Below the pieces are notes generated by a model. That model was not told where the DNA came from, made no database searches, and worked only from the letters and a program-made list of their open reading frames with translations. From an uncultured Acidobacteriota bacterium (lineage in GTDB: Bacteria > Acidobacteriota > Thermoanaerobaculia > Multivoradales > JAHEKO01): DNA of 64,000 nucleotides. Location: contig CAVRAU010000023.1 in the NCBI GenBank assembly GCA_963719055.1, positions 136,699 to 200,698 on the forward strand. The letters run 5' to 3'. The position numbers and the translations under genes are program-made. Shown here one piece after another: positions 5,805 through 48,590 of this stretch. Each line of letters begins with the position of its first letter. Within the stretch, counting starts at the first letter, position 1.

Positions 5805-5805
5805 C

Positions 5806-6399: not shown

Positions 6400-6402
6400 C
6401 GC

Positions 6403-11464: not shown

Positions 11465-11471
11465 TCGACTC

Positions 11472-12290: not shown

Positions 12291-12841
12291 TCCCAGCCTG
12301 TGGGGGCGTACTCTGGATAGCGTCGCACCAACTCTTGGCGCAGATGCTTGCGCGCGGCAAACAGGTGGTTGCGGACCGTCGAGGCCTTGCAGCCCAGAAT
12401 CTGGCCCACCTCGTCCGATCCCAGTCGCTCGACGCCTGCCAGCAGAAACACCAATCGTTGCCTCTCGGTCAAGCCCTCTGACAGACGTTCCAGAATCTCA
12501 GTGACTTCCCGGTCCCCGAGATCGGCCAGCGTCCGAGCTCCCGGATTCTTGAGACTCCTCAGGTGGGTCCCCAGGGGTCGCAAGGCCTGCTCCCGGGTCC
12601 GGCGCCAGCGCACCTGGTCGATGGCGAGGTTGACGGCGATACGGAAGATCCAGGTATTCGGACTCCACCGGGTATCGAAACTCTGTCGTTTCTCCCACAC
12701 CCGCAGAAAGACCACCTGAACGATATCTCGCGCCTCCTCCCGATCCCGCGTTATGCGTGTGACCACTTGCAGGAGGGGCGGTGTTTTGCGACGGATCAGC
12801 TCGTCGAAAGCCCTCTCATCACCGTCCTGCACCGCAGTCAT
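12260..12841 (-). CDS. RNA polymerase ECF (sigma-70 family group IV) sigma factor
   Basis: 'ERAFDELIRRKTPPLLQVVTRITRDREEARDIVQVVFLRVWEKRQSFD' is region 2. The region 4 HTH is 'LTERQRLVFLLAGVERLGSDEVGQILGCKASTVRNHLFAARKHLRQ'. Confidence 0.85.
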   Translation of the reverse strand: MTAVQDGDERAFDELIRRKTPPLLQVVTRITRDREEARDIVQVVFLRVWEKRQSFDTRWSPNTWIFRIAVNLAIDQVRWRRTREQALRPLGTHLRSLKNPGARTLADLGDREVTEILERLSEGLTERQRLVFLLAGVERLGSDEVGQILGCKASTVRNHLFAARKHLRQELVRRYPEYAPTGWDCTDQGGPIQ

Positions 12842-13173
12842 GACCTCGGTGTCCGCGGCTGCGGTCCAGGATTGCTGCGGACGTGAAGTGTAGAGGTGAA
12901 AAGGCACGTGTATCCCTATCTCGATCGACAGTCGATCAACGGTTCATACGGCCGTCGATCCGGCATCGTCTATGCATCTCGCGAATCGCCGAAGCTCTGC
13001 CATCGGTGATCCCACCCGGCGGCTTCCCGAAACACCCGTACGATGACGATTCTGTGAAGATAGAATGCACGTGCGCCGGGAAGAAACACCCGACCGCGGG
13101 CTCGCAACGGGCAACCGCCTGTGGCCGATTCGATTATACGGGACAGGTGCCCTGTTGCCTTGTTGCAAATTCC

Positions 13174-30304: not shown

Positions 30305-31741
30305 ATGTATCTTTCCAAGAGATTCGCCGCTCTTCCTCCGCGCCAAAAGCTTCTCGCTCGCATCGCACTCTACGGTGGGCTGGCCGCCCTCATGGGCCTC
30401 GTGGCGCTGGGGATCTCCTACTTCGCCCGCCCCCTGAAAAGGGGGAGGGACGCTATCGGAGACATCGCCGCGCTCAGTCAGACCGAGGAGGTGCGGCTAC
30501 TCCAGGAGTACATTCAGATCGACACCAGTTCGAGTACCGGTAGCGAGGTGGATGGCGCGCTCTTCCTGGCCGAGCACCTGCGGCAAGGGGGTCTCGAACC
30601 CTACATCGAGCGCCTCGGTGAAGACAAAGCCAACCTGTGGGCGATTCTGGAGGGCGAGACCGAGCAGGCCATCGTCCTCCACAACCACATCGACGTCTAT
30701 CCGGCGGGTGATCCGGAGGATTGGGACTTTCCACCTTTCGGGGGAGTGATCGACAAGGCCTGGATCTACGGCCGCGGCGCCTTCGATATGAAAAGCCTCG
30801 CCATCGCCCAGCTCATGGCCATCGTCGATCTGGCCAAGGATCAGGAACGACCCGAGAACACGATTATCTTCCTGGCTTCGGGCAGCGAGGAGGTGGGTAG
30901 CGATCTGGGCTCGAAATGGATCCTGGCCAACCACCCTGCCCTGGCCGACCGGTTCTCGGTCGTCCTGACCGAGGGTGGGGTCATCGAAGCGATCACTCAC
31001 GAAAACATCAAGTATTGGGGGGTCGAGTTCGCCCAGAAGTGGTTCGCAGACGGCTGGGCCTGCGCCCCGACTCGAGAGCGGCTGGAGGCTCTCAGAGAGG
31101 ATCTGAACCACATCAGCGACTCGAGTTACGAGTTACGAGTGACCCCAGAGATCCAGGACTTCGTGCTCTCGTATGGCGGTTCGCGGGGTAGCGAGAAGAC
31201 TCAGGAGATGCTGGACGACCTGCTCTCGACCCTCGACCATGCCGATCAGTTCAAGGCGCTGCCGCCCTATCTGCAATCGCTTTTCCGAGACGAGACCGCC
31301 CCTTTCGAGATCGAGCCGGATCCCGAGGGAGAAGGCTACAGGATGAGAATCATCCTGCATCTGCTGCCCGGTTCGGACTTCGAGGAGGCCAAGAGGACCC
31401 TTCTCCCCGACTGGGCGACTGCCGGCGTCTCACTGACCTTCACTCCTCCTGCGGGAGCGGATTACGGCAGCCCCATTGATCATCCTGCCTTCCAGATTCT
31501 TGTCGACTCTCTCCAGGAAGCCCATCCCTATGCCACTGTCGGCCCCTACTTTCTGGCCTGGTCGGCCACGGACGCCCGCTTCTTTCGCCAGGCCGGTACC
31601 CCGGCCTATGGCTTCTCGCCATTCCTGATCTTCGTCACCGACACCTTCCGCCGCGACACGCTCAACGAACGGATCGATCTGCGGGGCTTTGTCGAAGGTG
31701 TGGACCTCTACCGGCAGGTCGTCCGCCGACTCGCCGGCTGA
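30305..31741 (+). CDS. M20-family metallopeptidase (ArgE/DapE/CPG2-like) with N-terminal membrane anchor
   Basis: 'NHIDVYPAGDPEDWDFPPFGGVIDKAWIYGRGAFDMKS' and 'IIFLASGSEEVGSDLGSKW' match M20 metal-binding motifs. Confidence 0.75.
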   Translation: MYLSKRFAALPPRQKLLARIALYGGLAALMGLVALGISYFARPLKRGRDAIGDIAALSQTEEVRLLQEYIQIDTSSSTGSEVDGALFLAEHLRQGGLEPYIERLGEDKANLWAILEGETEQAIVLHNHIDVYPAGDPEDWDFPPFGGVIDKAWIYGRGAFDMKSLAIAQLMAIVDLAKDQERPENTIIFLASGSEEVGSDLGSKWILANHPALADRFSVVLTEGGVIEAITHENIKYWGVEFAQKWFADGWACAPTRERLEALREDLNHISDSSYELRVTPEIQDFVLSYGGSRGSEKTQEMLDDLLSTLDHADQFKALPPYLQSLFRDETAPFEIEPDPEGEGYRMRIILHLLPGSDFEEAKRTLLPDWATAGVSLTFTPPAGADYGSPIDHPAFQILVDSLQEAHPYATVGPYFLAWSATDARFFRQAGTPAYGFSPFLIFVTDTFRRDTLNERIDLRGFVEGVDLYRQVVRRLAG

Positions 31742-31838
31742 CAGGCTGTGGCAAACCCCTGGTCAATTCTTGTCACCTCGACGGCCGGGTTCTCCTGAAC
31801 CGACCCCAAAAACTCCCTGAAACAAGGGTTTTCTCGCT

Positions 31839-31854
31839 TGGCACGCAATCTGCA
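31839..31854 (+). promoter_or_regulatory. sigma54 (-24/-12) promoter
   Basis: TTGGCACGcaatCTGCA. GG and GC are 11 nt apart; TGGCACG-N4-TTGCA has one mismatch. ~50 nt upstream of the pilin start, with a GAGGAG RBS at 31895-31900. Confidence 0.65.
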
Positions 31855-31909
31855 GAAAGGGTATTCGAGCGAAGCGGAAACACTAACTGTTACAGAGGAG
31901 TGAATGACT

Positions 31910-32458
31910 ATGATGCGACTCATGAGACGACGGGGCCAAAAGGGTTTCACCCTTATCGAGCTCCTCATCGTGGTTGCCATCATCGGCATCATCGCTGCGA
32001 TCCTCATCCCGAACCTGCTGGATGCTCTCCAGAAGGCGAAGCAGAAGAGGACCGTTGGTGATATGCGTGATGTTGGTGCCGCCTGGTTCTCCTGGTTGAC
32101 CGACCAGGTGGGCGCAGCCGCCGCTGGAAGCACAGCCAAGACGTACAGCCTTCCTGGATCTTCGGTGACTGGAGATACTCTTCTCCAGACACTGTATCCG
32201 AACGACAACATGTTCTACATTCAGGAAGTGCCGAACACGGACGGTTGGGGTGGCCCTATTGAGTACTGGTACTCGGGCAACCCGCTCTCCGCCCAGGTCA
32301 TGGCGGTCCGCAGCTTTGGTCGTGACGGCACCGCCGGACCGAACGGTTCCGGAACGCCTACACCATGGGGCCCTTCCTGGCCTCGGATTACGATCAGGAC
32401 ATCGTCTGGGCCGACGGCTTCTTCGTCACCTACCCAGCAGGTGCCAAGATCGACTGAC
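31910..32458 (+). CDS. type IV pilin / pseudopilin (PilA-like) with prepilin N-terminus; probable frameshift near 3' end (~32360)
   Basis: 'RRRGQKGFTLIELLIVVAIIGIIAAILIPNLL' is a classic class III signal. The alternative-frame tail '...DYDQDIVWADGFFVTYPAGAKID*' ends at ~32458. ATGs at 31904, 31910 and 31913 are all possible starts. Confidence 0.85.
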
Positions 32459-32478
32459 GCTTTCACTCTCTGAAAGCA

Positions 32479-32510
32479 GGTTTTCCAAGAGGCGCCGCGA
32501 TTCGCGGCGC
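32479..32510 (+). terminator. rho-independent terminator after pilin gene
   Basis: gaggcgccgc-gattc-gcggcgcctc is a perfect 10-bp GC stem with a 5-nt loop, followed by ttttctttct. Confidence 0.85.
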
Positions 32511-32541
32511 CTCTTTTCTTTCTGGACCCGATTCTTCAAAG

Positions 32542-33934
32542 GTGCTGCCCTTGCTAGACTCTCACTCCACCGTGCGTGCTTCGGCCAGTCTCCTGCTCAT
32601 CCTCCTGGCGATCGCCTTTCCAGGCCAGGTCCTCCAGGCGCTGGAGCCGACGGTCGACGAAGCCACCGAGTGGCTCGAGCATTACATCGAGATCGACACC
32701 TCCACCCTCGACGGGGCGCGAAAGGCGGGCACCTATCTGCGCGGACTTCTCCATCAGGCCGGGGTGACCACCCAATGGATCATCTCTCCGGAGGGTCAGC
32801 CGTTTCTCTACGCTCGTGCCGAGGCTGCGGTAGCCGGTGCTCCTACTTTGATCCTGCTGCATCATCTCGATGCAGTTCCCGCCGGATCGGGCTGGACTCA
32901 CGAGCCGTTTGCGGCGGAGATCGATGAGGGGGCTCTCTACGGACGCGGAGCCATCGATGACAAGAGTCTGGGAATCGCCCATCTGGTCGCCTTTCTTGCG
33001 CTACCGGCAATCGACCTCCACATCCGTGGCGCTCGCCTTTCTCGCGGTTGGAGGAGAGGAAACCGGCGGCATGGCAGGAACCGGATGGCTGATCGACAAT
33101 CACCCAGAGCTCTTCGAAAACGTGGCAGCGGTCCTCACCGAGGGAGGCTCCAATCGGGTCTACGGTGATCGTGTCGCCTGGTGGGGAATCGAAGTGGCAC
33201 AGAAGCGACCCCTGTGGATGCTGGCGACCAGCACGGGTCGTCCCGGTCACGGCTCGACGCTCAATCTGCACAGCGCCCCCCACCGTCTCGTGCGAGGGCT
33301 CAGCAAGATGGTGGATCGACCTCTGGATTTCCGCCTGACGCCGGAAGCGAGGCTCTTTTTCGAAACGCTGGCACCGCTGGAGAGTCCCGCATTCCGGTCC
33401 GTGGTCGAGGATCTGGATTCCATTCTGGCGGAGCCCGACCCCGTCCTGCGGCTGCTGCCGGGCCTGCCCAACTATCTCTTGGATTCCGTCCAGGTCAATG
33501 TCCTGGAGGCCGGGTCGGATCTCAACGTGACTCCCGATGTGGCCCGGGCGCGGATCGACGCGCGCCTACTCCCCGACACTGACGAAGCCGCATTTCTGGC
33601 CGAGCTGCGCGAGCTCGCGGGTCCCGATGTCAAGCTCGAGGTTCTCCTGACTGCCGCCCAATCCCCACCCTCACCCACCGACCACCCTGTCTTTGTCTGT
33701 CTGCAGGATCAACTCGGCAGTTCGGCACCCGTGGTGCCGGCCTTCATCACCGCCATCACGGATGCGCGCTTTCTTCGCCAGCGAGACATTCCGGCCTACG
33801 GATTCTCACCGTTCCCCCTCGGCCCCCGGGCCCTGCGCGGTATCCACTCGAGCGACGAGCACATCCCCCTCGATGACTTTGGCGAGGGTATCGAGACCCT
33901 GTGGAAAGTGGTGTGGCGATGCACCGGCGGCTGA
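32542..33934 (+). CDS. M20-family metallopeptidase paralog (apparent frameshift ~33000)
   Basis: 'LILLHHLDAVPAGSGWTHEPFAAEIDEGALYGRGAIDDKS', then in another frame 'FLAVGGEETGGMAGTGWLIDNH...LTEGG'. Paralog of 30305-31741. Confidence 0.7.
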
Positions 33935-36361
33935 TTCGGTTGCTGCCGGTCATCATCGGCATCATCGCCCTGTCCATCCTCTACGGACAGCTACTTCTCC
34001 CGGGCAGAGCGCTGGCCGAGCGCGATATTCCCGGTCTTCATCTCCCCATGCTCACCGACCTCGCTCGCGTCGGCGCCGAGGGGATCCCCTACTGGAACCC
34101 CTCGATTCATGGGGGACAGCCCCTGCTCACCAATCCTCACTACGCCACCTTCTACCCGCCGACCTGGATGATCTTTCTGCTGCCCGTCGATTACGTCATC
34201 GGTCTACTGGTCTTTCTGCACGCGCTCTGGGCTTTCGTCGGCGCCTGGAGGTTGGCGCGGCGCTGGGGGTGCGAATCGGCCGCGGCCAGTCTGGCCGCCG
34301 TGGCATTTGTCGGCGGTGGCGCCTTCGTGTCTTCACCCAATCTGCTCAATCTGTTCCTGGGGATGGCCTGGCTGCCTTGGATTCTGGCGCTGGGGCGAGG
34401 AGGCCCTGCGGGAGCCAGCGGCCAGACAATGGGTCCCGGCGAGCGTCAAAACCGCTCTCGGAATCGGCGCCCAGGTTCTGGTGGGCAGCCCGATCATGCC
34501 GCTTGCTCAGTCTGTTGGCACTCCTGTGTCTGGCTCTCGAATACGTGCCGAGTCGCTGGTACCGGGTCGCACGGCTGGTGCCGATCGGTCTGACCTCCCT
34601 GGCTATCGCCGCCATTCAGCTGCTGCCGACTCTGCGACACATCGCCGACTCCTCCAGGGGGGCGGGCTTGGATCTCCACACCGCGACGACCTGGTCGACA
34701 CCCCCGGCGAGGTTCGCCGAGTTCTTCTGGCCGCGCATCTATGGCGACCCGACAATGGCCGAATCCCTCTTGTATTTCGGCTACCCCGGTGTCGAGCGAC
34801 CGGTGCCCCTGATTCTCTTCATCTACACCGGTCTGATGATCCTGGCGCTGGCGTTGGGCGGTCTTTTCGACAAACAGCTTCCCCGACGTCGCACCCTGAT
34901 CACCCTCATGCTTCTTGGGCGCCTTCCTCTCCTTGGGCCGCTACAACCCCCTCTACACCGCAGTCCTGGTCAAGGTGCCGCCTTTCTCGGCGATCCGATT
35001 TCCCGAGAAGTTCCTCATCTTGACCACCACCGCGATCGTCTTTGCGGCAGCCCTGGCCTGGCAGGGAATCCTCTCCAGTCGAGGCGAGGATCGAAAGGCG
35101 CGGCTGAGGGCGCCGCTGATCGTCGCCAGTGTCGCCCTGGTGCTGACGGCTATTCTCTATCTGGCCCCGCTGGTGGCACCGGATCTCGCAGTCCGTCTCA
35201 TCGAGGGAACCAGCGCCGAGAAGTTGCAGTGGTACGACAAGCCGGCAGGAGAGGCGACGCTGCCAGCCGAAGTCCTGGCCGTCAGGGCCGGTTACCTGGG
35301 CAAGGAGACCTTTGTCGCCGGTGTTTTCTGGTTCGGGGCCCTGATCCTTCTGCGCCTCCATTCGAGACCTGGGTTCTCGCCAGCTCTGCTGGTCGGACTC
35401 GTTCTGGCGCTGGTCACTGTGGAATTCGCGTACTACGGCCGGACCGTGAACAACCCGATACCCGCTGGCTTTCTACGCCAGCCACCAAGGGTATTGCAGC
35501 AGCTCCCGCCCTCGACTGGGCGGGTCTTCTCCGACGCGGGTCTCTTCAACGACTGGGAGTTCTTCATCCCCTCACCCGAGGAAAAGGTGCCACCGTCCTT
35601 ACAGCGATTCCTTCTGCGGCTCGATCCCTACTCGGCGAATCTCTGGGGATATTCCTATGCCCTGGAAACCGATCCCGACAAGATGATCAACCGGTGGGGG
35701 CGACATGCTCTGGAGACGCTGAGAACCGACTCGACTCTGTTGAGTGAGGGCTGGTCCGTGAGAGCCTATAGGTTCCTCGGCGCGTGGAATGTCGGCATCG
35801 TCGTCCGACGCCGATCGCCCAAGGCCCAGATGGATGAGAAGGAGCGCACGGGAACCATGCCGGACCCGGCGCGCGTGATCGGCAACCCCTATGTCCTGGA
35901 GAGATTCCGGTTTGTCTCCCGAGTGGACTCGTGTGCCGATCTGCCCGCCGCTGTGCAGCGGATCAAGGATCGAGACTTCGATCTCGAGGATTTCGACGCC
36001 ATCGTGGTCCCCTCGACAGCAGGCCGGGGGCCGCAGCCTGGAATTCGACTCGCAGGCCGAGGTGACCGTTATCGAAGACCACGCCAGCCGCATTCTGGTC
36101 GACTACCAAGCCCAGAACAAGGCCTTCCTGGTGGCCGCCATCACCGCCGACCGCGATTGGTCAGCGCGAGTGGATGGAGCCTCCACCCCCATCCAGGTCA
36201 CCGCCCTGGGTCAGATGGGCATCGAGCTCCCTGCGGGGTCCCACCGCCTGGTGCTCGAGCATCGGAATCCGGTGCTGATCTGGGGTGCCCTCATCAGCGG
36301 GCTCGCGCTCCTGGCTTGCGCGACCCCTCTCATTACCCGGACAATGCGTCATGGTGATTGA
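33919..36361 (+). CDS. second YfhO-family GT-C-like membrane protein (three or more apparent frameshifts)
   Basis: 'LPMLTDLARVGAEGIPYWNPSIHGGQPLLTNPHYATFYPPTWMIFLLP' parallels the N-terminal loop of the 18715-21030 paralog. C-terminus 'IELPAGSHRLVLEHRNPVLIWGALISGLALLA' matches the paralog C-terminus. Confidence 0.55.
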
Positions 36362-37128
36362 GTCCATCTTCTTCCTGCTCTGGGTGGGACTGGTCGGCCT
36401 GGTTGTCGGCAGCTACCTGAACGTCCTGATTCACCGGATTCCCCGGGGAAAGTCAACAGTCCTGCCCCGCTCGAGATGCCCCTATTGCCAGGGACCCATT
36501 CGGGCCAGGGACAACCTGCCGGTTCTGAGCTTCCTCATCCTGCGCGGACGCTGCCGCCACTGCCGGGCGCCGATCTCCTGGCGCTACCCGATCATCGAGG
36601 GCCTCACCTCCATCCTTTTCGTGGCGAGTCTTCTCAAGTTCGGAATCAGTCCGAGCCTGGTCCATGCACTGGTCTTTTCATGCTTGATGGTATTGCTGGC
36701 AGCCATCGACATGGAGCACTTCCTTCTCCCTGATCGCCTCACCCTGCCCGGCATCTTCGTCGGCCTGGGGCTGCAGCTCTGGGCTCCGATGCCGGGATTG
36801 CTCGATGCCGTGGTCGGCACCGCTGGTTGGCGCCGGCATCCTGATTCTGGTCATCAACTACTGGTACTGGTGGCGGGGTGAGGAGGGCATGGGAATCGGG
36901 GACGTCAATATGCTGGCACTGATCGGTGCGTTTCTGGGCTGGCAAGGTGTCTTGACGACAATCGTCCTGGCGACCTCGAGCGGGGCGCTGGTGGGGATCA
37001 GCATGCTCCTGGCCGGCCGCCTCGGCATGCGCTCGCGGTTGCCCTTCGGCTTCTTTCTGGCCCTGGGTGCTCTCCTGACCTTGTTCTTCGGCGATCTGCT
37101 GATCGCCTACTACAGCGGGTTGCTATGA
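36351..37128 (+). CDS. pilD: prepilin peptidase / N-methyltransferase (A24 family) (apparent frameshift ~36815)
   Basis: 'LPRSRCPYCQGPIRARDNLPVLSFLILRGRCRHCRAPISWRYP' is the tetracysteine zinc motif. Polytopic TMs. The A24 catalytic region 'GMGIGDVNMLALIGAFLGW' lies in a second frame. Confidence 0.8.
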
Positions 37129-38864
37129 GTCGTCGGCGCTGGCCGCGGCTCGGACTGCGGCGCGAGATCCAGATTCTCTTGCCGGTCACGGTCTTTCTGC
37201 TGGTTCTCATCTCCGGGTTCACTCTGTTCGCCTATCGCAGTGCCATCGACCTGTTGGTCGAGGAGCGCCAGCGAGAAGTCCTGGCCATCACCCAGAAGTT
37301 CGCCATCGATCTTGCCGCGGGCCCCTGGCCCACACCCACAGAGCTGCGTCGACAGGCCCCAGCCGCCAGTCGCATCGCCATTGCCGACACCACCGGTCGC
37401 CCGCTGCGCTCCTTCGGCGCCCAGGCGACTGGCAACCTTCTCACTCCGTTGCAGGGCCAACCTCTGACCCGAGCCGTGGCGTTCGGACCCGGTGCGGCCG
37501 CAGGCGACTCTGTCATGGGCTTCGCCCCCTTCCGGTATCAAGACCAGAGCTTCATCCTCCGTCTCGAGATGCCGGCCATGGAGTTGTCTCGGCAAAGGCA
37601 GGGAGTTGGCGTTCTGACCTGGGTCGTTCTGCCCACCAGCGTCGCGCTACTGATGCTGACCCTGCTCTTTCTGCCCCACTTCTTGAAGCCCTACGACACG
37701 CTGGTGGAGCAGGTGCAGCGGGTGACGCCGGACAGCGACGATCAGGACGATGTCTCGATGCTCGTGTCCACTGTAGACAAGGCGTTGACCGCTCTGGCAG
37801 CCGCCTCCAAAGAGTCCTCGGAGGACGACTTCACCGCCCTGCAGCGCACACTGGGGGCCAGCCTGGAGAGCGGTCTTCTCCTTCTCGATCAGCAGGGGCT
37901 GGTCCTGACTCTCAACCAGCTGGGCAGCGATCTCCTCGAGATCGACCCGATCGAGGAACCGGTTCCCGTGGCGACCTGTCTGGAGACTCATCCGGGGCTG
38001 CTCGCCATGTTGTCCCAGGCCGTGACTGAAGCCAAGGGTCTTCCCCGTCAGGAAATTCGCCTCGAGACCTCCGAGGGCGGTCGCACCCTGGGATTCACGG
38101 TTCATGTCCTGCGACGGGACGACAGCACGGTCCGGGGCCATCTCGCTCTGTTCGTCGATCTCACGGAAAGCCACCGGGAAGCCGAAGCTCGCCAGCTCGC
38201 CACCAGTCTGGAGCAGCTCGGTGAGGTGGCCGCAGGAGTCGCTCATGAACTGCGCAACAGCTTGGCGACCCTGCGTGGATATCTGACGCTCATCGAACGC
38301 CATCCGGATGAAGAATCCATCACCGACTATCTGCAGGAGATCCGTCGAGAAAGCGACCACCTGCAGAGGGTTGTCGAAGACTTCCTGTCCTTCGCGCAAC
38401 CGGACAGCGCCCGGGTCGAAACCGTGGATCTGCTGGCAATCGCTCGCAGAGCGGCCGCCGACCCGGCCCTGGAAGCGGTACCGGTGGAGATCGAACCCCA
38501 AGGAAGTGCATCGTGGAAGCTGCAAGGGGATGCGCAGCTGTTGGAGCGGGCGCTGCGCAATCTTCTGCACAATGCCGCTCGAGCCGAGCAGGACGCCGGA
38601 CGATCAGGTCCCATTCACCTGAGCCTGCAGCAGAGAGGGGACCAGATCGAGCTGGCAGTCGAGGATCGCGGGCCGGGAATTCCCACCGAGGTCCGCACCA
38701 GACTCTTCCAGCCCTTCGCCACAGGCCGCAGTGACGGTGTGGGTCTGGGCCTTTCCCTGGCTCACCGCATCGTGACGCTGCATGGCGGCAGGATCGATCT
38801 CGAGGACCGCCCGGGAGGCGGGACCCGAGCGGCGATTTCATTTCCCTTTGGCATTTTTGTGTAG
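37125..38864 (+). CDS. sensor histidine kinase (2 TM, periplasmic sensor, HisKA + HATPase_c)
   Basis: H-box 'GVAHELRNSLATLRGYL', N-box 'LRNLLHNAARA' and G-boxes 'DRGPGIP...GVGLGLSLA'. ATGA overlap with pilD. Confidence 0.85.
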   Translation: MSRRRWPRLGLRREIQILLPVTVFLLVLISGFTLFAYRSAIDLLVEERQREVLAITQKFAIDLAAGPWPTPTELRRQAPAASRIAIADTTGRPLRSFGAQATGNLLTPLQGQPLTRAVAFGPGAAAGDSVMGFAPFRYQDQSFILRLEMPAMELSRQRQGVGVLTWVVLPTSVALLMLTLLFLPHFLKPYDTLVEQVQRVTPDSDDQDDVSMLVSTVDKALTALAAASKESSEDDFTALQRTLGASLESGLLLLDQQGLVLTLNQLGSDLLEIDPIEEPVPVATCLETHPGLLAMLSQAVTEAKGLPRQEIRLETSEGGRTLGFTVHVLRRDDSTVRGHLALFVDLTESHREAEARQLATSLEQLGEVAAGVAHELRNSLATLRGYLTLIERHPDEESITDYLQEIRRESDHLQRVVEDFLSFAQPDSARVETVDLLAIARRAAADPALEAVPVEIEPQGSASWKLQGDAQLLERALRNLLHNAARAEQDAGRSGPIHLSLQQRGDQIELAVEDRGPGIPTEVRTRLFQPFATGRSDGVGLGLSLAHRIVTLHGGRIDLEDRPGGGTRAAISFPFGIFV

Positions 38865-38974
38865 AAAAGAAACAAAACTCGCACACCGGGGTCTGTCGTG
38901 AGAATCCCTTGGCAACACTCCTAAGTCCTTCTCTCACAAGTAGTTGATGCGTATTCAAAGAGATGCCAGAGACC

Positions 38975-38989
38975 TGGCACTACTCTTGC
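38975..38989 (+). promoter_or_regulatory. sigma54 (-24/-12) promoter upstream of minor-pilin operon
   Basis: TGGCACtactcTTGCg. GG/GC spacing is 11 nt, a near-consensus match. ~65 nt upstream of the fimT-like start. Confidence 0.6.
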
Positions 38990-39052: not shown

Positions 39053-39698
39053 ATGCGTTCCAATCGTCAAGACCACTCGCACGCAGGCTTCACCCTCTTC
39101 GAGCTGCTCGTCGTGATCGCCCTGATCTCCATCATGGCGACCATGGCGACACCCAATTTCCTGCGTTTGATTCAACGCTCGAAGCTCACCGGCATCGCCC
39201 AGGAGACATCGTTGCTCATGCGGATGGCGCGTGACTACGCGATCCGCTACAACACGGAAACCGTTGTCCGCATCGACGTGAACACCAACGAAGTCATCGC
39301 TTTTGTCGAAGTGGACGGCGTCCTCCCCGGTGACCCGGGTGACCGGATCTTCAACCCCATCGCCGGCAGCCCACATCGCTCTACCGATTGGGAACTGGCC
39401 AGATACCAGCTGCCGAGTCGGGTGACGTTCGATGCCCCGGCGGCTGACCCACTGGTCGGAGGCGGTACGCCCATCTGGGCGTTCACTCCGGTGGCCGGAG
39501 AGAACGTTGCGGTGTTTCAGCCCAATGGATCAGCCGACACTACGGGGAGCCTTTCGGTTTGCCGATCCCTTCGGGAACTTTCTGCAGGTCCGGGTCGAGC
39601 CGGCGGCCACGGGTCGCGTGCGGATCGAGAAGTTCCACGACGCCGACGTGAGGTGGTACTTCCGCAACGAGAACAACAAACCCTGGGAATGGAAGTAA
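39053..39698 (+). CDS. FimT/GspH-like minor (pseudo)pilin (apparent frameshift ~39555)
   Basis: 'HAGFTLFELLVVIALISIMATMATPNF' prepilin motif. The C-terminus in the alternative frame ends '...RVEPAATGRVRIEKFHDADVRWYFRNENNKPWEWK'. Confidence 0.7.
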
Positions 39699-39720
39699 CG
39701 GCAGCGAGAGGAACCTACCC

Positions 39721-40329
39721 ATGCTGAACCAAAGGAGATCTGCTGTGTACAGAAAACAAGTTTCTCGTCGGGGCGGCTTTTCCCTGATCGAGGTGCTCAT
39801 CGCCATGGGCATCGTCCTCATCGCGATGGTCGGGCTGCTGCCGCTCTTCATGCGCTCGGTCCTGCAGAACATCGAGGGCCGGGAATCCACCATCGCCGGC
39901 AATCACGGGCGTTCGGAGATGGAGACCTACAGCGAGCTCGGCTTCAACAATTGGGAGCTCGAGCTCACCGCCGGCACAGAGCGAATCTCGCAGTTGTTCT
40001 ACACGAATGGCGAGGTGGACAAGCGAGGCGACGAGTCCTGGGTCACCGTCGTCCCGGCTGGGGAAATCGCGCCCTGGACACAGACCACGACCATTCGTCA
40101 ATTCGGTCTCAACGGGGTGGTCGACACGGATCTGGATGGCGTCATCGATCTGATCCGTGGCTTGGAGGATGACGACCACGACGGCGAGCTCGACAACCCG
40201 CTGGCGGCGGGGACTCTCGCCGGAGCCGTCCATCTGAAACAGGTCGAGGTGGATGTCGCGGGGGAGAAGGATTGGGCCCACGGCGGCGGCGCGGGTCAGA
40301 TCACCGTCGAGACTCTCAAGGCTTTCTAA
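39721..40329 (+). CDS. PilV/GspI-like minor pilin
   Basis: 'RRGGFSLIEVLIAMGIVLIAMVGLLPLF' prepilin motif. 202 aa. Confidence 0.65.
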   Translation: MLNQRRSAVYRKQVSRRGGFSLIEVLIAMGIVLIAMVGLLPLFMRSVLQNIEGRESTIAGNHGRSEMETYSELGFNNWELELTAGTERISQLFYTNGEVDKRGDESWVTVVPAGEIAPWTQTTTIRQFGLNGVVDTDLDGVIDLIRGLEDDDHDGELDNPLAAGTLAGAVHLKQVEVDVAGEKDWAHGGGAGQITVETLKAF

Positions 40330-40343
40330 GGAGGATGGGCGAG

Positions 40344-41686
40344 ATGACTTCATACGAAACGCACAGACCTCGGCCCAGGCGCCGCGTGCCTCGCCGGCAG
40401 GGTTACTCCCTGGTCGAGCTTGTCATCGCCTTCGCCGCTGCGATCATCATTCTGCTGGTGCTCTTCCAGGCCTTCCAGGCCAAGACCCAGCTGGCCCGCA
40501 CCCAGATCGATGTCTCGGACATGCAGCAGGCGCAGCGCGTCATCCAACACGAGATGAGCCGACTGATTCGCATGACCGGTCGAGGCGGCCTGGCCGACAT
40601 GGTCGACAGAGGCAACGGTACCCGCTATCAGCCGGCCCTGACCGTTCGCGACGACGTGGCGTCGGGACAGAACATCGCGATCGGTGACGCCAGCACCCCT
40701 CTCGTGGCCGAGGGGACCGACGTCCTGACGATCCGGGGTGTCTTCAACTCCCCGGTCTACCAGCTCAACTTCGCCAGTCCCGCGACTCTGGCACTCACCA
40801 TCAATGGCGTCGACACCACCGACGAAACGCAGGCCACAGACGGGACTCTCCTCGTCACCGATCCGAGTCCCACTGGTGTGCCGCAGGATCTGACAGCCGC
40901 TCTGCAATGCTGTCGCCGGAGACGCCTTGCTGCTCGTCAGCCCCATCGACGAGGCGATCTACGCGGTGGTCGAGATCAGCAATGGCCCCAATTGTGGTGC
41001 CGGTCAGGCCTCGGTCCCATTCGACGTCACGGGTGGCACCTACACCAGCGAATTCAGGACCCTCTACAACTCCGGTCTGGGTGGCAATCCGACCCTGCCC
41101 AGCGGCCTCTCCAACGTCGCACTGGCCGGGCTCGTCGAGGAGTTTCGGTTCTATGTCCGCGAGCCCGATCCCAATACCATCGCGGCCCCGGCGCTTTCCG
41201 TCGCCAGCATGATCCCCGGCACCGAGATCGTCGACCCCAGGACGACCAGCAGGCAATAACGTGCGTCTCGATCTGGCGGACAACATCCTCGATCTGCAAG
41301 TTGCCCTGGGCTATGACTCGGCTCTGGGGGACGCCCTGACCGATCGCAACGGCGACGGCTTTACCAACGAGGACGACATCGTGCTGACCGAGACCGCCGA
41401 CGGTCAGGACGACGACTGGCTTTTCAACCACGATCAGGACGACCCCGACGCGGCACCCTTCGTACCGCCTTGGGACACCGATCCCCTGACCGCCACCCCG
41501 GAGCAGCCGGACATCTACTTCGTGCGGCTCACCACCCTGGCCCGGGTCCAGGTGCCCGATCGGAACTTCGACTCCCTCGAGATCGCGAGGATCGAGAACC
41601 GGGACGTGGATCCCTTCAACACCTTGGATGAACGGCGTTTTCGTCGCCAACTGATTCAATCGACCATCGACCTGAGGAATCTCTGA
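40344..41686 (+). CDS. PilW/GspJ-like minor pilin (two apparent frameshifts ~40915, ~41255)
   Basis: AAGGAGG RBS 9 nt before ATG 40344. 'RQGYSLVELVIAFAAAIIILLVLF' prepilin motif. C-terminal 'DIYFVRLTTLARVQVPDRNF...' is PilW-like. Confidence 0.6.
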
Positions 41687-42252
41687 TGCGTAGATCCAAC
41701 CGCACCCTCCGTCGCCAACAGGGCAGTGTCTATATCCTCGCCCTCCTGGTCCTCCTCATTCTCACCATCGTCGGGCTCGCCGTATCGCTCGTCACCCAGA
41801 GCGAGATGCAAATCGGTATCAACGAGCGCCTCGGTCACCAGGCGTTCCACTCGGCCACCAGCGGCATCGACATCGCCATGGCCAAGGCCCTGGTGATGCC
41901 CGACCTGCGGTCGTTCGAGCTCGATCTGGTCGAGCCCGGCACCGATGTGGCCAATCTCAACATCCGCCACCGTCTCGAAGTGTCCCCGTTTCTGCCAATC
42001 CTCAGCGCTCCCTGCAATCTCTGCCAGATCAACGAGGGCGCCGAGTTCATGAAGATCAACCATGCCGTCGCCTCCACGGCGACACGCATCGCCTGGATGG
42101 GCAATCCCGACACCCCACCCGATGTTCCGACGCCGCTGGCGCAGGAGCAACTGAGTGTGTTGGTCTCATTCCAACCCTGGCGAATGGACATCACATCCGG
42201 CGTCGACGCCGCCACCGATCCGAACCGTGGTGGCCTCGACAACGCGTTCTGA
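41686..42252 (+). CDS. PilX/GspK-like minor pilin
   Basis: 'QQGSVYILALLVLLILTIVGLAVSLVTQSEMQIGINE' is a PilX N-terminal type motif (no Glu +5). 188 aa. Confidence 0.6.
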   Translation: MRRSNRTLRRQQGSVYILALLVLLILTIVGLAVSLVTQSEMQIGINERLGHQAFHSATSGIDIAMAKALVMPDLRSFELDLVEPGTDVANLNIRHRLEVSPFLPILSAPCNLCQINEGAEFMKINHAVASTATRIAWMGNPDTPPDVPTPLAQEQLSVLVSFQPWRMDITSGVDAATDPNRGGLDNAF

Positions 42253-42284
42253 TCCGCGAGAATTTCTAGAAGGAAGGTGTCGCC

Positions 42285-45200
42285 ATGACTCGAAGGATCT
42301 CATTCTCGAACCCCATGTTTCGACTCGTCTGCCTCTTGATGGTAGCGACGCTGGTCACCAGCACAGGTATCGCCGACGACCGCGATCTGGTCAAGGAAAG
42401 CGGTGAAGTACCCTACCTTTTCGTCATCTTCGACGTCTCCGGGTCCATGAACTGGACACCGCCGGACCTCGACAACGGCCTGCCTGAGGATCGCTGGGCC
42501 CCCGGCTCGGGTGACGATCCCAACTCGAAGTTCTACCAGGCGAAATCCGCCCTGTTCCAGGTCATGCAGGATCCCGATCTCCAGGGCATCAACTGGGGAT
42601 TTGCCACGTACAACCAAGACCAGGTGCGGGCCTACCGCAAGCACTATCTCTACTCGCCGGTGGAAGACCCGCCCTGGGCGACCGATCTCCCCTATCCGCT
42701 GCCAGGCACACCCAAGCATTTCGGGGACACCTGTATGGACGACTCCGACGGCGGCTCGGGTTGTGATCTGGATGCGGATATGGCCGAAGTCGCCTGGAAC
42801 GCCGGCCGCAGTGCCTGGGCCATGGGAACCTGTGGAGCGCCACAGGATCTGGCGAATCTCGAGAGCACTGGCGAGCTCATTTCCTTCCCCGTCTTGGGAC
42901 CCTATGGAACTGCGGAGACCATCGAATGGGTGCGGTCTCAAGGCCGCGAGTTCGAGGTCACCTGGCACGACGTGGATTCCGGCGCCTATGGCGACGACAA
43001 CATCGTGGTCGAGGTCAGCGTGCGGGAGCGCGACGGATGTGGCAGCTACGGCATGTCATGGAACAACGTCGATCTGGAGTTCACCAAGACCTACCCCACC
43101 GACAACAACGGTCGTGACCTGCCGGGCGGCAGCGAGACGCTGATCTGGCAGGGCGATGGCTTCACCGACGGCGCGGGCAACCCCGCAGGTTTCTACGACC
43201 CCGACGACACGCGAGCGACCAACACCTGTCGCGGCTGGGAACCCAACAGCGACGCCGGCAACGATGTCGCCGCCGGCGTCAATGCCAAGTACCCCACGAC
43301 CTCCGACCCTCTGAGCCGTCATACCTCGGGCTTTCGACCGGGGTGACGTCATCCCCTTCGACTGGCAGGATGAAGAGGCCTGGGGTGCTGGCAACAGCAA
43401 CCGTGCCCAGATCCTCAAACGTCTGGCTCCCAGCTTCGACTTCGCCGATCCCGCGACGGCCGACTTCCGGGTGGCCCCCTACTTCCAGGACCTGCCCGAC
43501 AGTTTCACCGCCACGGGCGCCCAGGGAAGGCTGGCTCTGAAACCGGAGTACGTCATCACCCCGCCACTGCTGCCCAGCGGCTCGACGCCGATCGGCAACT
43601 CGATGTACAACTTCATGCAGTGGTTCGATCAATGGAAGACGGTGGCCACGGGCCCGGTTGGCGACGACCAGTTCGGCTGCCGAACGGTCAACCTGCTGAT
43701 CCTGAGTGATGGCGACGAGACCTGCTACAACGGCGGTATCGACGGCACCACGGATGGCGGCGGGGATCGCAATCCCTGCTGGATGGCCGATCGCCTCTTG
43801 ACTCAGAACAACCGCAGTATCCGCACCTTCATCATCGGCTTCGGCGTGCCGGGCACGAATGCCAACTTCCTCAACTGCATCGCGGAGCGGGGCGGCACGG
43901 ATGCCATCGATCTGGACAACGACGGTGTCACCGATGTCGAGGGACCGATCCTGCCCGGCAACGAGCAGGAGCTGGTCGATGCCATGAAACAGATCGCCAA
44001 CGCGGTCAAGAGCCAGTCCCGGTCCTTCGCCTCCGCCGCGGTACCGCAGGCGCAGGTCAATGTCGATGACAAGGTCTATCTGACCAGCTTCATGCCCCTG
44101 CAGGGTGAACCTATCTGGCCGGGACGATTGGATGCCTATCTGCGCCCCGTACCCCTGCGCGAGCAGGATGTGGTGCTGCCTGATGGAACCATCGTCACCC
44201 GCCTGGTCCCCGACCCGACGCAGGGCTGTGCCGCGGGAGACGAAAGCCAGTGCCACATCTGGAACGCGGGCGAGGAGCTGCTGCTCCAGGCCGCGGAAGA
44301 CACCCAACTCATCGACATGGGGAGCGGTGTCGGCGACGGCACCTTCAACCTGGGCAACGGTGAGCTGCGACGTCGCGTCTACTACTCCATCGATCGCAAG
44401 AACTTCCAGGTGCCCGATCGCCGACGCTTCTTCCGACTCAATGCCGGCAACAGTGACGGTCTATGGCGGGACATGTTGTATGGAATGGATATCTGTCACC
44501 GAGACGATCCCGCTTGTACACTCGACTCAAGACAATCGAGATATCGCCTCCGAGAACATGAACTTCACCCATGGTGTCAAGACCGCCGAGGATCCGACCG
44601 ACCCCGGTACCTACTTCGACTACATCCTGGGTGACTTCTTCCACTCCGATCCGCTCGTGTACGGCAACCCGGACAATTTCGCCTACTGGGTCGGCGACGC
44701 GGAAGGCAGCGGCACGCTGCCGCTGCAGGATCCTTGTGACACCTCACCCGATGGCTACCGCTGCTTCTTTGCCCAACATCGGTATCGCCGCAAGGTGATC
44801 ATCGCGGGCACCAACGATGGCCAGGCCCATATCTTCGATGCCGGGTTCTTCCGCGGTCCCAACGGGAATCCGACCGGTCTCTGCGAATCGAACCCGGTGA
44901 CCAGCCAGGAGTTTGTGGTCGGCGAGTTCGACAAGGGGACAGGACGGGAGCTGTTCTCCTATGTTCCGCGCACGGTCATGCCCATGATGGAAGACCTCAG
45001 AACAGACAAGCGTGCAGGACTTCTCGGTCGACGGCCGGATCGCTCGCGGCGATGCCTTCATCGACCCCGTGCAGGGGGACGGAATTCCCAATCCCAGTGA
45101 AAGAGAATGGCGAAGCACGCTGGTGGGGACCCTGCGGGAAGGCGGTTCCGGATTGTGGGCCATCGATATCACCCAGCCCGACGTCCTGCTCGAATGCGAT

Positions 45201-46565
45201 GGTCTCAACGCAGATTCCACAGGCACGCAACGGTGCCCTCGACTACGTCCCCTCCTGCACCAACGGTGGCATCGATTGCGGCACGGCCCGCTACCCCGAG
45301 GTCATGTGGGAGTTCGAGGACAGCAAGGACTGCGTCATATGAGATAGACGACCCCTACCTGGACCATCCCGGCATAGACCCTGAAACGGAAGCCAAACGG
45401 TGCGATGATGACGGCAACGGCTTTGTCGATCTCGGCGATACCTGGTCCCGACCGACCATCGCCCGAATCCGTGTCGACTCCGACGCGGACGGTGGCGTCG
45501 TCGACAAGTACGTCGCGGTCTTCGGTGGCGGGATGGATCCCGACGAGAAGCACTCGGCAGATCAATCCCGAGTGCGTGGGAACTTCCTGTACATGGTGGA
45601 TATCGAGACCGGTCGCGCCATCTACAAACGGGCCGTGATCGGATCGGCCGCCGGCGATCCCGCGGTGGTCGACACCGATCAGAACGGCTATGCCGACACG
45701 GTCTACTTCGGCACGACCGCCGGCTATCTCTACAAAGCGGATATCAGCTCCGTGGAGATTCTCGAGGATCTGGGAAATGCGGGTGGCTTCAAGGTGACCT
45801 CCGAGAACTGGGAGCCTTTCGCCATCTTCAATACTTTCGATCGCCCCATCTATCACGAGCCCACGGTGGTCTTCGTGACCGAGCTGGGCAAATACGCGGT
45901 GGCCTTCGGCACCGGCGACCGGGAGGATCTCTGGGACGACAGCTATCTGGGCCAAGCCCAGGAACGAAGGTCGCTTCTACATGTTCGTGGACCGTGACTT
46001 CGGAAGGAACGATGGCTTTCTGCCGCAGGATGAGACCGACTACCAGCAGATTGCCCTGACCGACACCAACACGACGGCCGACTACCTGCGGCAAGCCCCC
46101 TACGGCTGGTACCTACGTCTCGATCCAACGGAACGGGTCATCTCCGAGGCGTTCTCGTTGGCCGGCGTCACGATCTTTTCCTCCTACGTGCCCGAGGAAT
46201 CGATCAGCGACGATGGATCGGTCTGCCAGCGCTTTGGCGACAGCAGGATCTACCTCGTCACCTCGACGGCCGCCAACACCCTGCTGAGCACCAACGAGCG
46301 CTACTTCACCGTCGAGCAGGGTTTCTTGTCACCTCCGTTCGCCGAGACGTCGCAGACCAAGAACCCGCCCGATGGGGATGAGGGACCCGGTGACTTGCCG
46401 GACGATATGGTCAATGTGGTGAACGAGATCAAGAAGCTCCTGCCGACCAACTGCAAGTACGCCAACTACACCATCAATATCAAGGCGGTGCGTGACGACA
46501 CCGGTATCGAGTTCCTCGCCGCCATTCCGATCTGTACCGTGGAGGCCAACTGGAAGGACTTCTAA
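42285..46565 (+). CDS. PilY1/PilC-like pilus tip adhesin with N-terminal vWA (MIDAS DVSGS) domain and C-terminal PilY1 beta-propeller; five or more apparent frameshifts
   Basis: Signal peptide 'MFRLVCLLMVATLVTSTGIA'. 'YLFVIFDVSGSMNW' is a vWA MIDAS motif. The C-terminus 'QNGYADTVYFGTTAGYLYKADIS...GKYAVAFGTGDRED' matches the conserved PilY1 C-domain. ORF pieces span four frames. Confidence 0.7.
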
Positions 46566-47314: not shown

Positions 47315-48531
47315 TCAAGGACCCGTATCGGGTTCGCCTTCGGTGGCCCCGTCGCTGATGGCCGAGCCGGTGGCGACCCGAAACCGCCGCAGAATGCTCC
47401 AGGGGCCCCGCTCGCCATCGTCGTCGAAGGCGGCAACCCGCCAGACGAAGCTCCCCGTCCCCTGCAGACCAATGGTCGCCGAGGTCTCGGTACGGTCGGC
47501 CAGATCGATGATGTTCTGGACGAAGAAACGGGTTCTGGCGACCTGCAGCGCATAGCGGCTGGCGCCTTCGACCGGACGCCACTCCAGCACCAGCTCGCCA
47601 TCGGCTGCCATGACAGCCTCGTAGTTGTCCTCGGGCCCGAGAAGCAACGGTGCGTTGGGCAGCAGCTTCTTTCTGGATAGGGCCGTGCCCTGTTGGACGA
47701 CCTGCTCCAGAGGCCCCACATCTCGACTGGAACCATCCGAGGAGGAGACCACCATCTGGCCCTCATAGGCGGCGAACCGGCTGGTGTCCTCTTCCGGATC
47801 GTGGCTGATGGCCGCCTTGCTGTCGCGCTGGACTCTCGCCTCCGCTTGCGGCGTCGAAATGCGGCTGCTGGTCTGAGCGGTTCCCAAATCGACCCACCCT
47901 GCCTCCAGATCGATGGTGCGCTGCCGCGCCTCGCCGGGTGCCGGCCGGGTGCGGCCGATCAGGAGCACGGTATCCGGTCGCACCGTGTACAGGGTGCCAT
48001 CGACGGACATGATCTCTGCCGAACCACTGCCAGTGGTCTTGACATAGTCGCCCGCGTTGAGGGCCACGCGGCTGCGAGCGGTCTGCCATGAGCCGCGGTC
48101 TCCACGTCGGTACTGGACGCCACCCTGGACCGCAATGAACATGGCCTCGCCCTCGGCACCACGCATTCGCAAGGTGCTGAGAATCGACGCCAGCAGCGTG
48201 CGGCTGCGCTCGGCGCTAACGAACGACTCGCGCAGCGCCCCAGCGCTCTGATGCTCCCGCGCCTCCTCCAAATGACGACGGGCCACGAAGTACTCCTCTC
48301 GGTAGCTGTTGATCGCGCCTTCGCTGCGCACTGTGCGCAGAAGATCTTCGGCCTCCAGGATGACCCTGGCCACTTCCCTTTCAAGGACCATTCGATCCAG
48401 AAATCTGTAGCCCATGACTCCCACGATTCCCAAGACCAGCAGGACGACCACGAAACCCCACCCCTTGACGGAATCGAGCGAGACCGTGTACCAGTCGACC
48501 AGTTTGCGGGACTTGTTCTCCGAGCTCACTG
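47315..48531 (-). CDS. membrane-anchored FecR-domain protein with C-terminal Fn3-like domain
   Basis: Putative GTG start at 48531 with AGAGGAA upstream. TM 'GWGFVVVLLVLGIVGVMGY'. FecR-like 'RVALNAGDYVKTTGSGSAEIMSVDGTLYTVRPDTVLLIG'. C-terminal 'LEWRPVEGASRYALQVA...GSFVWRVAAFDDDG' is Fn3-like. Confidence 0.55.
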
Positions 48532-48590
48532 AACTGATTCCTCTGACGGGTGGTTTTGCACGGGGTCTCGAATATAGCAGGCGACGACGC

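Follow-up and report, generated by a model that had tools for sequence, protein, structure and literature searches.

Within a 64-kb stretch of DNA from an uncultured Acidobacteriota bacterium (64,000 nucleotides, hereafter the window), positions 31739-32523 probably form a self-contained transcription unit that encodes the major subunit of a type IV filament of the Thermoanaerobaculia (Acidobacteriota) and is controlled through sigma-54 and an NtrC-family activator; we put the probability of this reading at about 0.78. It is built on sequence elements that we observed directly, with their conservation, position and phasing, on the synteny of the regulator genes and on the GspG-like fold predicted for the pilin. 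An earlier note on this DNA had described a compact monocistronic sigma-54 pilin unit like pilA of Pseudomonas and Myxococcus, and every comparative test that we ran agreed with that description. The pilin unit is a real and ordinary sigma-54 pilin unit, an instance of the known PilR/sigma-54 type of control and not a new kind of system. The comparative set came from a scan of one genome per species, which yielded 79 loci with 98 homologous pilin copies. By their titles, nearly all of these loci are Thermoanaerobaculia, 'Ca. Multivoradales' or unclassified Acidobacteriota metagenome-assembled genomes, and a few bins are labelled otherwise (Holophagae, Deltaproteobacteria, Polyangiaceae, 'uncultured bacterium'). 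The coordinates of all features are collected in Table 1.

The pilin gene is preceded, close to the ~50 nt that the earlier note had given, by a near-consensus −24/−12 element with the canonical GG-N10-GC spacing and one departure from the consensus (C for T at −15). Matches to the exact pattern TGGCACG-N4-YTGCW would be expected 0.03 times per window, as judged from the shuffled window. The core TGGCAC-N5-YTGC occurs exactly twice in the 64 kb (at 31839 and 38975) against 0.23 expected, each time on the forward strand, in intergenic DNA and immediately 5′ of a prepilin-type gene. Among the homologues, we counted TGGCAY-N5-NTGC 40-180 nt upstream of the glycine codon of GFTLIE and found it in 83 of the 95 pilin copies that had at least 200 nt of upstream sequence, compared with a background of 0.0067 per 140 nt. 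The distance from motif to glycine codon has its mode at ~90-105 nt (90 nt in the window), and pilin promoters make up most of the 117 occurrences of the motif in the 2.44 Mb of strand-sequence fetched. In an alignment of the window with relatives whose protein identity falls as low as 79%, the element does not vary, in contrast to the intergenic DNA around it. Between 31000 and 33500, the forward strand showed no sigma-70-like promoter. The comparative evidence for a functional sigma-54 promoter upstream of the pilin gene is thus strong, and from the position of the element we infer a transcription start site (TSS) near 31865.

Alignment of 84 promoters on the −24 element brought out a dyad, TGACA-N5-TGTCA, usually present in two copies and in some lineages a perfect palindrome (for example GTGACA-N5-TGTCAC in L062 and L063). 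The inverted repeats of an upstream activator sequence (UAS), for which the earlier note had suggested a search, exist in the window as a pair of such sites at 31739-31775. Site A, the only match of at least 9/10 in the window, shares bases with the TGA stop codon of the M20 peptidase gene upstream. Site B, 22 bp further on, lies inside an 18-mer, CTGGTCAATTCTTGTCAC (31759-31776), whose sequence is the same in L080, L081, L001 and the window although the flanks diverge; relatives read TGTCAAT(T/A)TTTGTC at the equivalent place. No other tandem pair occurs in the window, and relative to the T of the −24 element the pair stands at −100 and −78. Sites with at least eight of the ten core positions were present in 71 of the 84 promoters (117 sites), against a background of 0.029 per 130 nt. 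Measured from the T of TGGCAC, the starts of these sites gather at −67, −77, −89 and −99 (vector strength 0.765, period 10.8 bp); with such phasing, the sites keep to the same helix face with respect to the promoter. The classic layout for NtrC-family activators, known from glnAp2, is a pair of phased dyads near −100 and −120. Judged by conservation and spacing, the TGACA-N5-TGTCA-like pair is probably the enhancer of the pilin promoter.

The PilR site of Pseudomonas aeruginosa has been given as TGT-N11-AGA plus GTCT elements (PMC6058289) and as TGT-N11-ACA (PMC8035640). We dismissed this published consensus as the UAS, the conserved motif here being TGACA-N5-TGTCA instead. Between the UAS and the −24 element, an A-tract, a short inverted repeat and a T-tract follow one another; the segment was flagged as terminator-like on the reverse strand, and many relatives carry a similar aaaa(g/c)cc...gg(g/c)tttt there. 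Conjecturally, it may be a bend or integration host factor (IHF)-type region, or else terminate weakly in both directions and so shield the unit from the gene before it.

The ribosome-binding site (RBS) AGAGGAG (31894-31900) is followed by three in-frame ATGs; homologues start at 31910, which is most likely the start codon. The resulting N-terminus, MMRLMRRRGQKG followed by FTLIELLIVVAIIGIIAAI, is a class III (prepilin) signal. The conserved blocks of the predicted 5′ untranslated region (5′ UTR; 31866-31900) are invariant in the window, L080, L081 and L001, to 79% protein identity, and TAACTGTTACAGAGGAG holds a CTGT-T-ACAG palindrome. The 5′ UTR folded no better than shuffled sequences (z = +0.8), and Rfam gave only sub-threshold noise on the locus, on the terminator hairpin, with no match to the leader. 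A leader RNA element was accordingly rejected, as the blocks are conserved without a significant fold; they could be the target of a protein or small RNA, or be needed for translation efficiency.

Downstream of the gene, the GC hairpin with T tract that had been claimed is there: a stem of AAGAGGCGCCGCG-ATT-CGCGGCGCCTCTT (32487-32515) runs into a T-tract at 32516-32523. It is preceded by a first hairpin, which L001 keeps at the same place with a different pairing sequence (CGTCTTC...GAAGACG). The 3′ region folds with a minimum free energy of −41.7 kcal/mol (z = −4.6). A strict search, admitting only a perfect stem within 150 nt of the stop codon, recovered the terminator in 64 of 100 homologous copies, mostly as a GGCGCCGC core 20-30 nt past the stop and then a T-run. 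The pilin gene is monocistronic and stands between two M20 peptidase genes, and its homologues often occur as two or three tandem paralogues. Some of these paralogues have no recognisable −24/−12 element (L007 10001-10543, L016 10001, L014 9279, L008 4368); P0062, with the leader MTRTLQRRSRTG, is an example whose neighbouring copy has both promoter and UAS. This contrast suggests differently regulated pilin variants.

The earlier note had placed the pilin gene correctly but missed a frameshift, so that the end of its open reading frame (ORF) is false. In the window this ORF (to 32473) closes in a low-complexity C-terminus, one base being missing between 32352 and 32353, and the conserved C-terminus YTMGPFLASDYDQDIVWADGFFVTYPAGAKID lies in the next frame with its stop codon at 32455-32457. 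Alignment with the syntenic contigs L080 and L082 placed the missing base as a single T (GGTAAC to GGAAC). Spliced from the two frames, the protein has full-length homologues at 98% identity (P0001, P0002); the frameshifted protein is itself in the database as P0017, called from an NCBI/ENA record. The gene is intact in four independent contigs, the Illumina-derived L080, L081 and L083 and the long L082. Across 20.6 kb (21910-42485) the window is 98.5% identical to L082, with 57 indels and 249 substitutions; most of the indels are of 1 nt and outside homopolymers. Further frame breaks split an M20 peptidase (32992), a PMT_2-like glycosyltransferase (29287 and 29756), the prepilin peptidase PilD (~36821), the NtrC-like regulator (~49272 and ~48676), a secretin (~4400-4600), a GspF-like gene and several minor pilins. 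Split genes also occur in L082, at other positions, and both look like unpolished long-read assemblies. Given the intact relatives and the indels that split so many unrelated genes of the window, the pilin frameshift is very probably an assembly error and not a sign of a pseudogene. The contig is rich in single-base indels, and ORF-based annotation is therefore unreliable there, the pilin gene included.

We examined what kind of pilin the restored gene encodes. The leader MMRLMRRRGQKG is short, basic and Gly-ended, and the sequence after it, FTLIELLIVVAIIG, has F+1, E+5 and a hydrophobic alpha1-N helix, all as in class III signals. The N_methyl domain was matched at E = 4e-10 and TIGR02532 was matched too, with one transmembrane (TM)-like helix at residues 15-33. 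In the window protein, Pfam recognised nothing beyond the N-terminal methylation motif. The best NCBIfam match was TIGR01710 (GspG), with 52.6 bits over profile positions 1-126 of 134 and below the 88.85-bit cut-off, and PF08334 (T2SSG) was weakly matched by 80 of 127 relatives (best E 9e-6; 15.9 bits for P0001 against a 21-bit cut-off). PF00114 (Pilin) gave no match to the window protein at E ≤ 0.01 and was not among the 25 families most matched by the 127 relatives at E ≤ 1. NF041775 (Myxo PilA) matched residues 10-57 only, and a profile search of the PDB likewise matched the N-terminal helix only (pilins of Geobacter, Myxococcus, Pseudomonas and Neisseria, and GspG). The pilin has no cysteines, nor have 108 of the 127 relatives.

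An AlphaFold model from the 127-sequence alignment reached a predicted local distance difference test score (pLDDT) of 85.9 and a predicted template modelling score (pTM) of 0.77; an earlier model from 28 sequences (pLDDT 57.6) was discarded. Foldseek, the one search tool behind the fold assignment, returned XcpT, Vibrio vulnificus GspG and Vibrio cholerae EpsG as the best PDB matches (probability 0.99, E ~7e-3, TM-score 0.35-0.53), with PAK pilin ranked after the GspG-type pseudopilins. In the model, a C-terminal extension of ~35 residues with the conserved sequence YDQDIVWADGFFVxYPAG forms extra strands. The description 'PilA-like' in the earlier note thus stands for the class III signal and fails for the globular domain, which appears GspG-like; the Pilin-family domain and disulphide D-region of PilA/PilE are lacking. 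GspG itself is matched below the score cut-offs, and the gene lies outside any gsp (C-O) operon. We therefore describe the protein as a type IV filament major subunit with a GspG-like core that fits neither family definition. Automated annotation calls this highly conserved family 'prepilin-type protein' or 'GspG'. The genomic context favours a pilus: the gene is monocistronic, tandem paralogues are frequent, and PilD and a FimT/PilV/PilW/PilX/PilY1-type operon are linked to it.

A sensor kinase and an NtrC-type gene had been named in the earlier note as candidate regulators, and both are present and syntenic with the pilin gene in relatives. The regulator, which reconstructs to 435 aa across its two frameshifts, is the only GAFTGA protein in the window. 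Orthologues with 60-70% full-length identity to it are found 5-8 kb from the pilin gene in 10 loci, and orthologues of the kinase lie 1.5-7 kb downstream of the pilin gene, on the same strand, in at least 40. The genes of L007, L016, L031-L033, L037 and L040 run M20, pilin(s), M20, PilD, kinase (forward) and regulator (reverse), the last two immediately adjacent and convergent, as they are in most loci with both; in the clade of the window, the minor-pilin operon is inserted between them. An NtrC-family regulator (REC-AAA+-helix-turn-helix) is genetically linked to the pilin locus, and the kinase, with two hydrophobic segments, does not have the PilS-type layout of six TM segments and an operon with pilR. 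Because this neighbourhood is conserved in relatives, the regulator is most likely the activator of the pilin promoter and the kinase most likely its sensor, as candidates named from gene order; we infer that the regulator would bind the paired sites and that the kinase would sense the signal.

Other genes adjoin the regulator. Downstream of it (~47315-48590, reverse strand) is a membrane protein gene (containing LVDWYTVSLDSVKGWGFVVVLLVLGIV), whose homologue in L021 (~3524, reverse strand) is preceded by TGGCACGTGCTTTGC; it may be another sigma-54 target, and no sigma-54 motif was found at the equivalent place in the window. Directly upstream of the regulator, SelA (selenocysteine synthase) is encoded on the reverse strand (49964-51331) and aligns to positions 1-366 of the 367 of the SelA profile.

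The second sigma-54 promoter that had been claimed before the minor-pilin operon is present. Of 13 related loci, 10 have the motif ahead of the FimT/GspH-like gene, and an alignment of six shows no variation in it. We ruled out a UAS common to both sigma-54 promoters, TGACA-N5-TGTCA being absent upstream of all 14 minor-pilin sigma-54 promoters tested, that of the window included; these promoters may for this reason depend on a different activator or on a diverged site. The block TTGGCATTTTTGTGTAGAAAAGAAACA (38848-38874), which is conserved, overlaps the kinase stop codon and has equivalents in L001, L003, L006, L011 and L082. The −24 element of the second promoter follows ~100-127 nt downstream of the block, and the predicted TSS of that promoter ~130-150 nt downstream. 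The block resembles a half-site of the pilin UAS plus a T-rich spacer, with no match to the dyad; it may serve as a binding site or simply reflect coding conservation. The operon itself includes a match to the PilY1 beta-propeller, and the gene calls of L082 include PilX_N.

Among the neighbouring genes, the PilD/A24 peptidase presumably processes the pilin, and a PilD homologue lies at most 6 kb from the pilin gene in 55 of the 79 loci. The two M20-family metallopeptidase genes that flank the pilin gene (30305-31741 and 32542-33934) encode an N-terminal membrane anchor or signal, and in 63 of the 79 an M20 homologue, on either side or on both, is no more than 600 nt away from the pilin gene. 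Possibilities for this linkage are that the peptidases are secretion cargo or that they take part in pilin processing. A second cluster, type IV filament- or type II secretion-like, occupies 1576-12907 on the reverse strand, 20 kb from the pilin gene.

Table 1. Features of the pilin unit, its regulators and neighbouring clusters (positions in the window).
Feature	Position	Strand	Details
UAS site A	31739-31753	+	TGACAGGCTGTGGCA; 9/10 match to TGACA-N5-TGTCA; centre ~−119 from predicted TSS
UAS site B	31761-31775	+	GGTCAATTCTTGTCA; 8/10 match; centre ~−97 from predicted TSS
A-tract, short inverted repeat, T-tract	31808-31832	unassigned	AAAAA CT CCCTGAAACAAGGG TTTT; between UAS and −24
Sigma-54 (−24/−12) promoter, predicted	31839-31854	+	TGGCACGCAATCTGCA; predicted TSS ~31865; 56 nt upstream of prepilin gene
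Predicted 5′ UTR	31865-31909	+	~45 nt; conserved blocks GCGAGCGAAGCGGAA and TAACTGTTACAGAGGAG (latter includes RBS)
Prepilin gene	31910-32457	+	182 aa true product; 12-aa leader; G-1/F+1/E+5; predicted GspG-like globular domain, C-terminal beta extension
First 3′ hairpin	32459-32477	+	GCTTTCA-CTCTC-TGAAAGC; directly after stop codon
Intrinsic terminator	32487-32523	+	13-bp stem (10 GC), 3-nt loop, then TTCTTTCT
Prepilin peptidase (PilD/A24)	36285-37128	+	split by frameshift; A24_N_bact and Peptidase_A24 on two overlapping ORFs
Sensor histidine kinase	37125-38864	+	HisKA, HATPase_c; 2 TM segments (17-35, 163-181); extracytoplasmic loop ~125 aa
Second sigma-54 promoter, predicted	38975-38989	+	TGGCACTACTCTTGC; 63 nt upstream of FimT/GspH-like gene (ATG 39053)
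Minor-pilin operon	39053-46565	+	GspH/FimT-like, PilV-like, PilW-like, PilX-like, PilY1-like; several frameshifts in window
NtrC-family enhancer-binding protein	48592-49901	-	REC, AAA+ with GAFTGA 49253-49270, Fis-type helix-turn-helix
ECF (extracytoplasmic function) sigma factor	12260-12907	-	second cluster
GspF-like protein	10676-12290	-	second cluster; split
GspE-type ATPase	8602-10251	-	second cluster; MshEN domain
PilN-like protein	6979-7797	-	second cluster
T2SSM_b-like protein	6403-6900	-	second cluster
TPR-secretin with cohesin domain	3215-5855	-	second cluster; split
Two pseudopilin-like genes	2720-3196, 1576-2304	-	second cluster

In the mechanism that we propose, sigma-54 RNA polymerase would bind the −24/−12 element as a closed complex, and dimers of the NtrC-family enhancer-binding protein would occupy the two TGACA-N5-TGTCA-like sites, whose centres at about −119 and −97 place them 22 bp apart on the same helix face. 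Once phosphorylated, the activator would assemble into its active oligomer and make contact with sigma-54 by DNA looping, which the A/T-tract element between the UAS and the −24 may assist, and ATP hydrolysis would then open the promoter. Transcription would start near 31865, and a short unstructured leader with a strong RBS would give efficient translation of the 182-aa prepilin. The monocistronic mRNA would end in, and be stabilised by, the two hairpins, the second of them the strong intrinsic terminator. The A24 prepilin peptidase encoded nearby would cleave the prepilin between the leader MMRLMRRRGQKG and FTLIE and methylate it, and the pilin would polymerise with minor pilins of the FimT/PilV/W/X/Y1 type; the operon for these carries a predicted sigma-54 promoter of its own.

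Several points weigh against this account of the unit. The TSS and the sigma-54 dependence are predictions from sequence, rpoN is absent from the 64-kb window, where no RpoN-box match was found, and the −12 element reads CTGCA where the consensus has TTGCA, although CTGCA is the variant seen most often in the family. Since the loci share ancestry, the counts of conserved sites overstate the number of independent events. Because site A overlaps the upstream stop codon, coding constraint could account for some of its conservation. The regulator gene of the window lies 16 kb from the pilin gene and does not share an operon with the kinase gene, which is 10 kb away from it. Nor is the activator assignment unique, since L062 encodes a different GAFTGA enhancer-binding protein (234-1169, 44% identical to the regulator of the window) directly upstream of its pilin gene, on the same strand, and the pilin promoter there has a perfect TGACAAGTGTTGTCA dyad. 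The mismatch between the UAS and the quoted PilR sites (PMC6058289, PMC8035640) leaves orthology with 'PilR' unsupported. One alternative is that the TGACA-N5-TGTCA sites are not the enhancer at all, but are bound by a repressor or other regulator, or that site A is simply the end of the upstream gene, so that the true activator would bind elsewhere or be encoded elsewhere. The stop-codon overlap, the unlikeness to the published P. aeruginosa site (PMC8035640, PMC6058289), the minor-pilin sigma-54 promoters without the motif and the other enhancer-binding protein beside the L062 pilin would all fit it. We nevertheless consider it quite improbable, as the sites recur in 71 of the 84 promoters regardless of the upstream gene, site B is wholly intergenic and invariant, and positions quantised at 10.8 bp relative to the −24 fit a looping activator and not coding constraint. 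Tandem 5-N5-5 palindromes 22 bp apart at about −100 and −120 are, moreover, the layout of NtrC-type enhancers such as that of glnAp2.

An alternative for the product, which also counts against our reading, is that it is GspG, the major pseudopilin of type II secretion, and not the subunit of a surface pilus fibre, in which case the sigma-54 unit would control secretion (of the flanking M20 peptidases, for example) and not adhesion or motility. We regard it as unlikely but not remote. In its favour, TIGR01710 is the best family match, PF08334 matches recur in relatives, XcpT, EpsG and V. vulnificus GspG head the structural matches, and the lack of cysteines is as in GspG and unlike type IVa (T4a) pilins. 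The JGI name for the relatives is 'type II secretion system protein G', M20 genes flank most of the pilin genes, and the window holds a GspE/F/M/secretin-type cluster at 1.5-12.9 kb. Every score, however, falls under its curated cut-off, and the C-terminal extension is absent from GspG. Moreover, gspG normally lies within a gspC-O operon, whereas the gene here is monocistronic with its own promoter and terminator, frequently in two or three tandem paralogues, a layout that major pilins with high expression typically show. The minor-pilin operon linked to it is of a type that belongs to T4a pili (FimT/PilV/W/X/PilY1), its PilY1 beta-propeller match included. The gene might also be a genuine pseudogene in the window, a real 1-nt deletion having left a truncated or garbled pilin in a decaying cassette. 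The position of the deletion outside a homopolymer and the P0017 entry in the database would agree with this, but we find it very hard to credit when four independent near-identical contigs have the frame intact and the promoter, UAS, RBS and terminator are all in order. With about one indel per 360 bp against L082 at only 1.2% substitutions, and with unrelated genes broken (the regulator twice, the M20 peptidase, PilD, the secretin and PilC), the pattern fits the consensus error of an unpolished long-read assembly and not decay tolerated by selection.

Sigma-54/PilR-type control of pilins is textbook knowledge in Proteobacteria and Myxococcota. Our comparative evidence extends it to Thermoanaerobaculia, a largely uncultured class known here from metagenome bins, for which we found nothing specific on pili or sigma-54 in the literature. 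New are the lineage, the enhancer sequence with its phasing, the 2-TM kinase, the GspG-like pilin with its C-terminal extension and the flanking M20 peptidases. The usable outputs are a promoter and enhancer definition (two phased copies of TGACA-N5-TGTCA), a candidate kinase/activator pair and a conserved pilin family; with them, metatranscriptomes can be interpreted and the sigma-54/pilus regulon of such genomes predicted, and the understanding of this class of systems is unchanged. A bolder and doubtful interpretation is that the locus builds a distinct, class-wide Thermoanaerobaculia filament, made of a cysteine-free GspG-fold subunit with a unique C-terminal beta extension and co-inherited with the M20 peptidases, PilD, the 2-TM kinase, a dedicated activator and the new enhancer. 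If this were true, the sigma-54-controlled organelle would stand between pilus and secretion pseudopilus and would not be a plain T4a pilus, and the filament might be connected with the scavenging of peptides in sediments.

Pili are firmly linked to sigma-54 in many species (PMC3162934), and the PilR/RpoN paradigm covers Pseudomonas, Myxococcus, Geobacter, Xanthomonas and others (PMC6058289, PMC7170775, PMC3162934). In P. aeruginosa, pilA is controlled by PilS-PilR (PMC6058289). The locus described here shares with that system a monocistronic major pilin gene, a −24/−12 promoter and an NtrC-family regulator with tandem upstream sites, its binding being predicted in our case, as well as a membrane sensor kinase, a prepilin peptidase and a separate minor-pilin operon (PMC6058289). 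It differs in its UAS, TGACA-N5-TGTCA in place of a NifA-like PilR site (PMC6058289, PMC8035640). The pilin here is GspG-like, without a disulphide-bonded D-region, and the kinase has two TM segments and an extracytoplasmic loop, whereas PilS has six TM segments and senses pilin. Kinase and regulator genes are convergent or separated here and form the pilSR operon there. The minor-pilin operon, which in P. aeruginosa is under FimS-AlgR, is of the sigma-54 type here.

The pilA genes of Myxococcus xanthus and Geobacter sulfurreducens depend on PilR and RpoN, with IHF also involved in Geobacter. Like them, the present gene would be a sigma-54/PilR-type pilin gene outside the gammaproteobacteria, from soil or sediment. 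The N-terminal helix is nearly identical (profile matches to Geopilin 7tgg, 9egp and 2m7g and to M. xanthus PilA 8tj2), but the similarity stops at about residue 65, and both the globular domain and the UAS differ. Any involvement of IHF at the pilin promoter is a guess from the A/T-tract element.

GspG (XcpT, EpsG, PulG) is the best match of the pilin both by family (TIGR01710, PF08334) and in the fold search, and the two have in common the absence of cysteines and the core motif DGWG...Y.Y...G(R/K)DG. Unlike GspG, it scores under the cut-offs, is ~40 residues longer with a conserved C-terminal beta-hairpin extension, and is encoded outside a gsp operon, in multiple paralogues and with a sigma-54 promoter and terminator of its own. 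The upstream region most resembles that of NtrC at glnAp2 in enterobacteria, where two tandem dyads ~100-140 bp upstream of the −24/−12 element, on one helix face, are bound by a REC-AAA+(GAFTGA)-Fis-helix-turn-helix protein; our candidate activator is of the same domain type, and its binding is predicted. The half-site sequence, regulon and signal differ from those of NtrC, and the likeness is one of architecture only.

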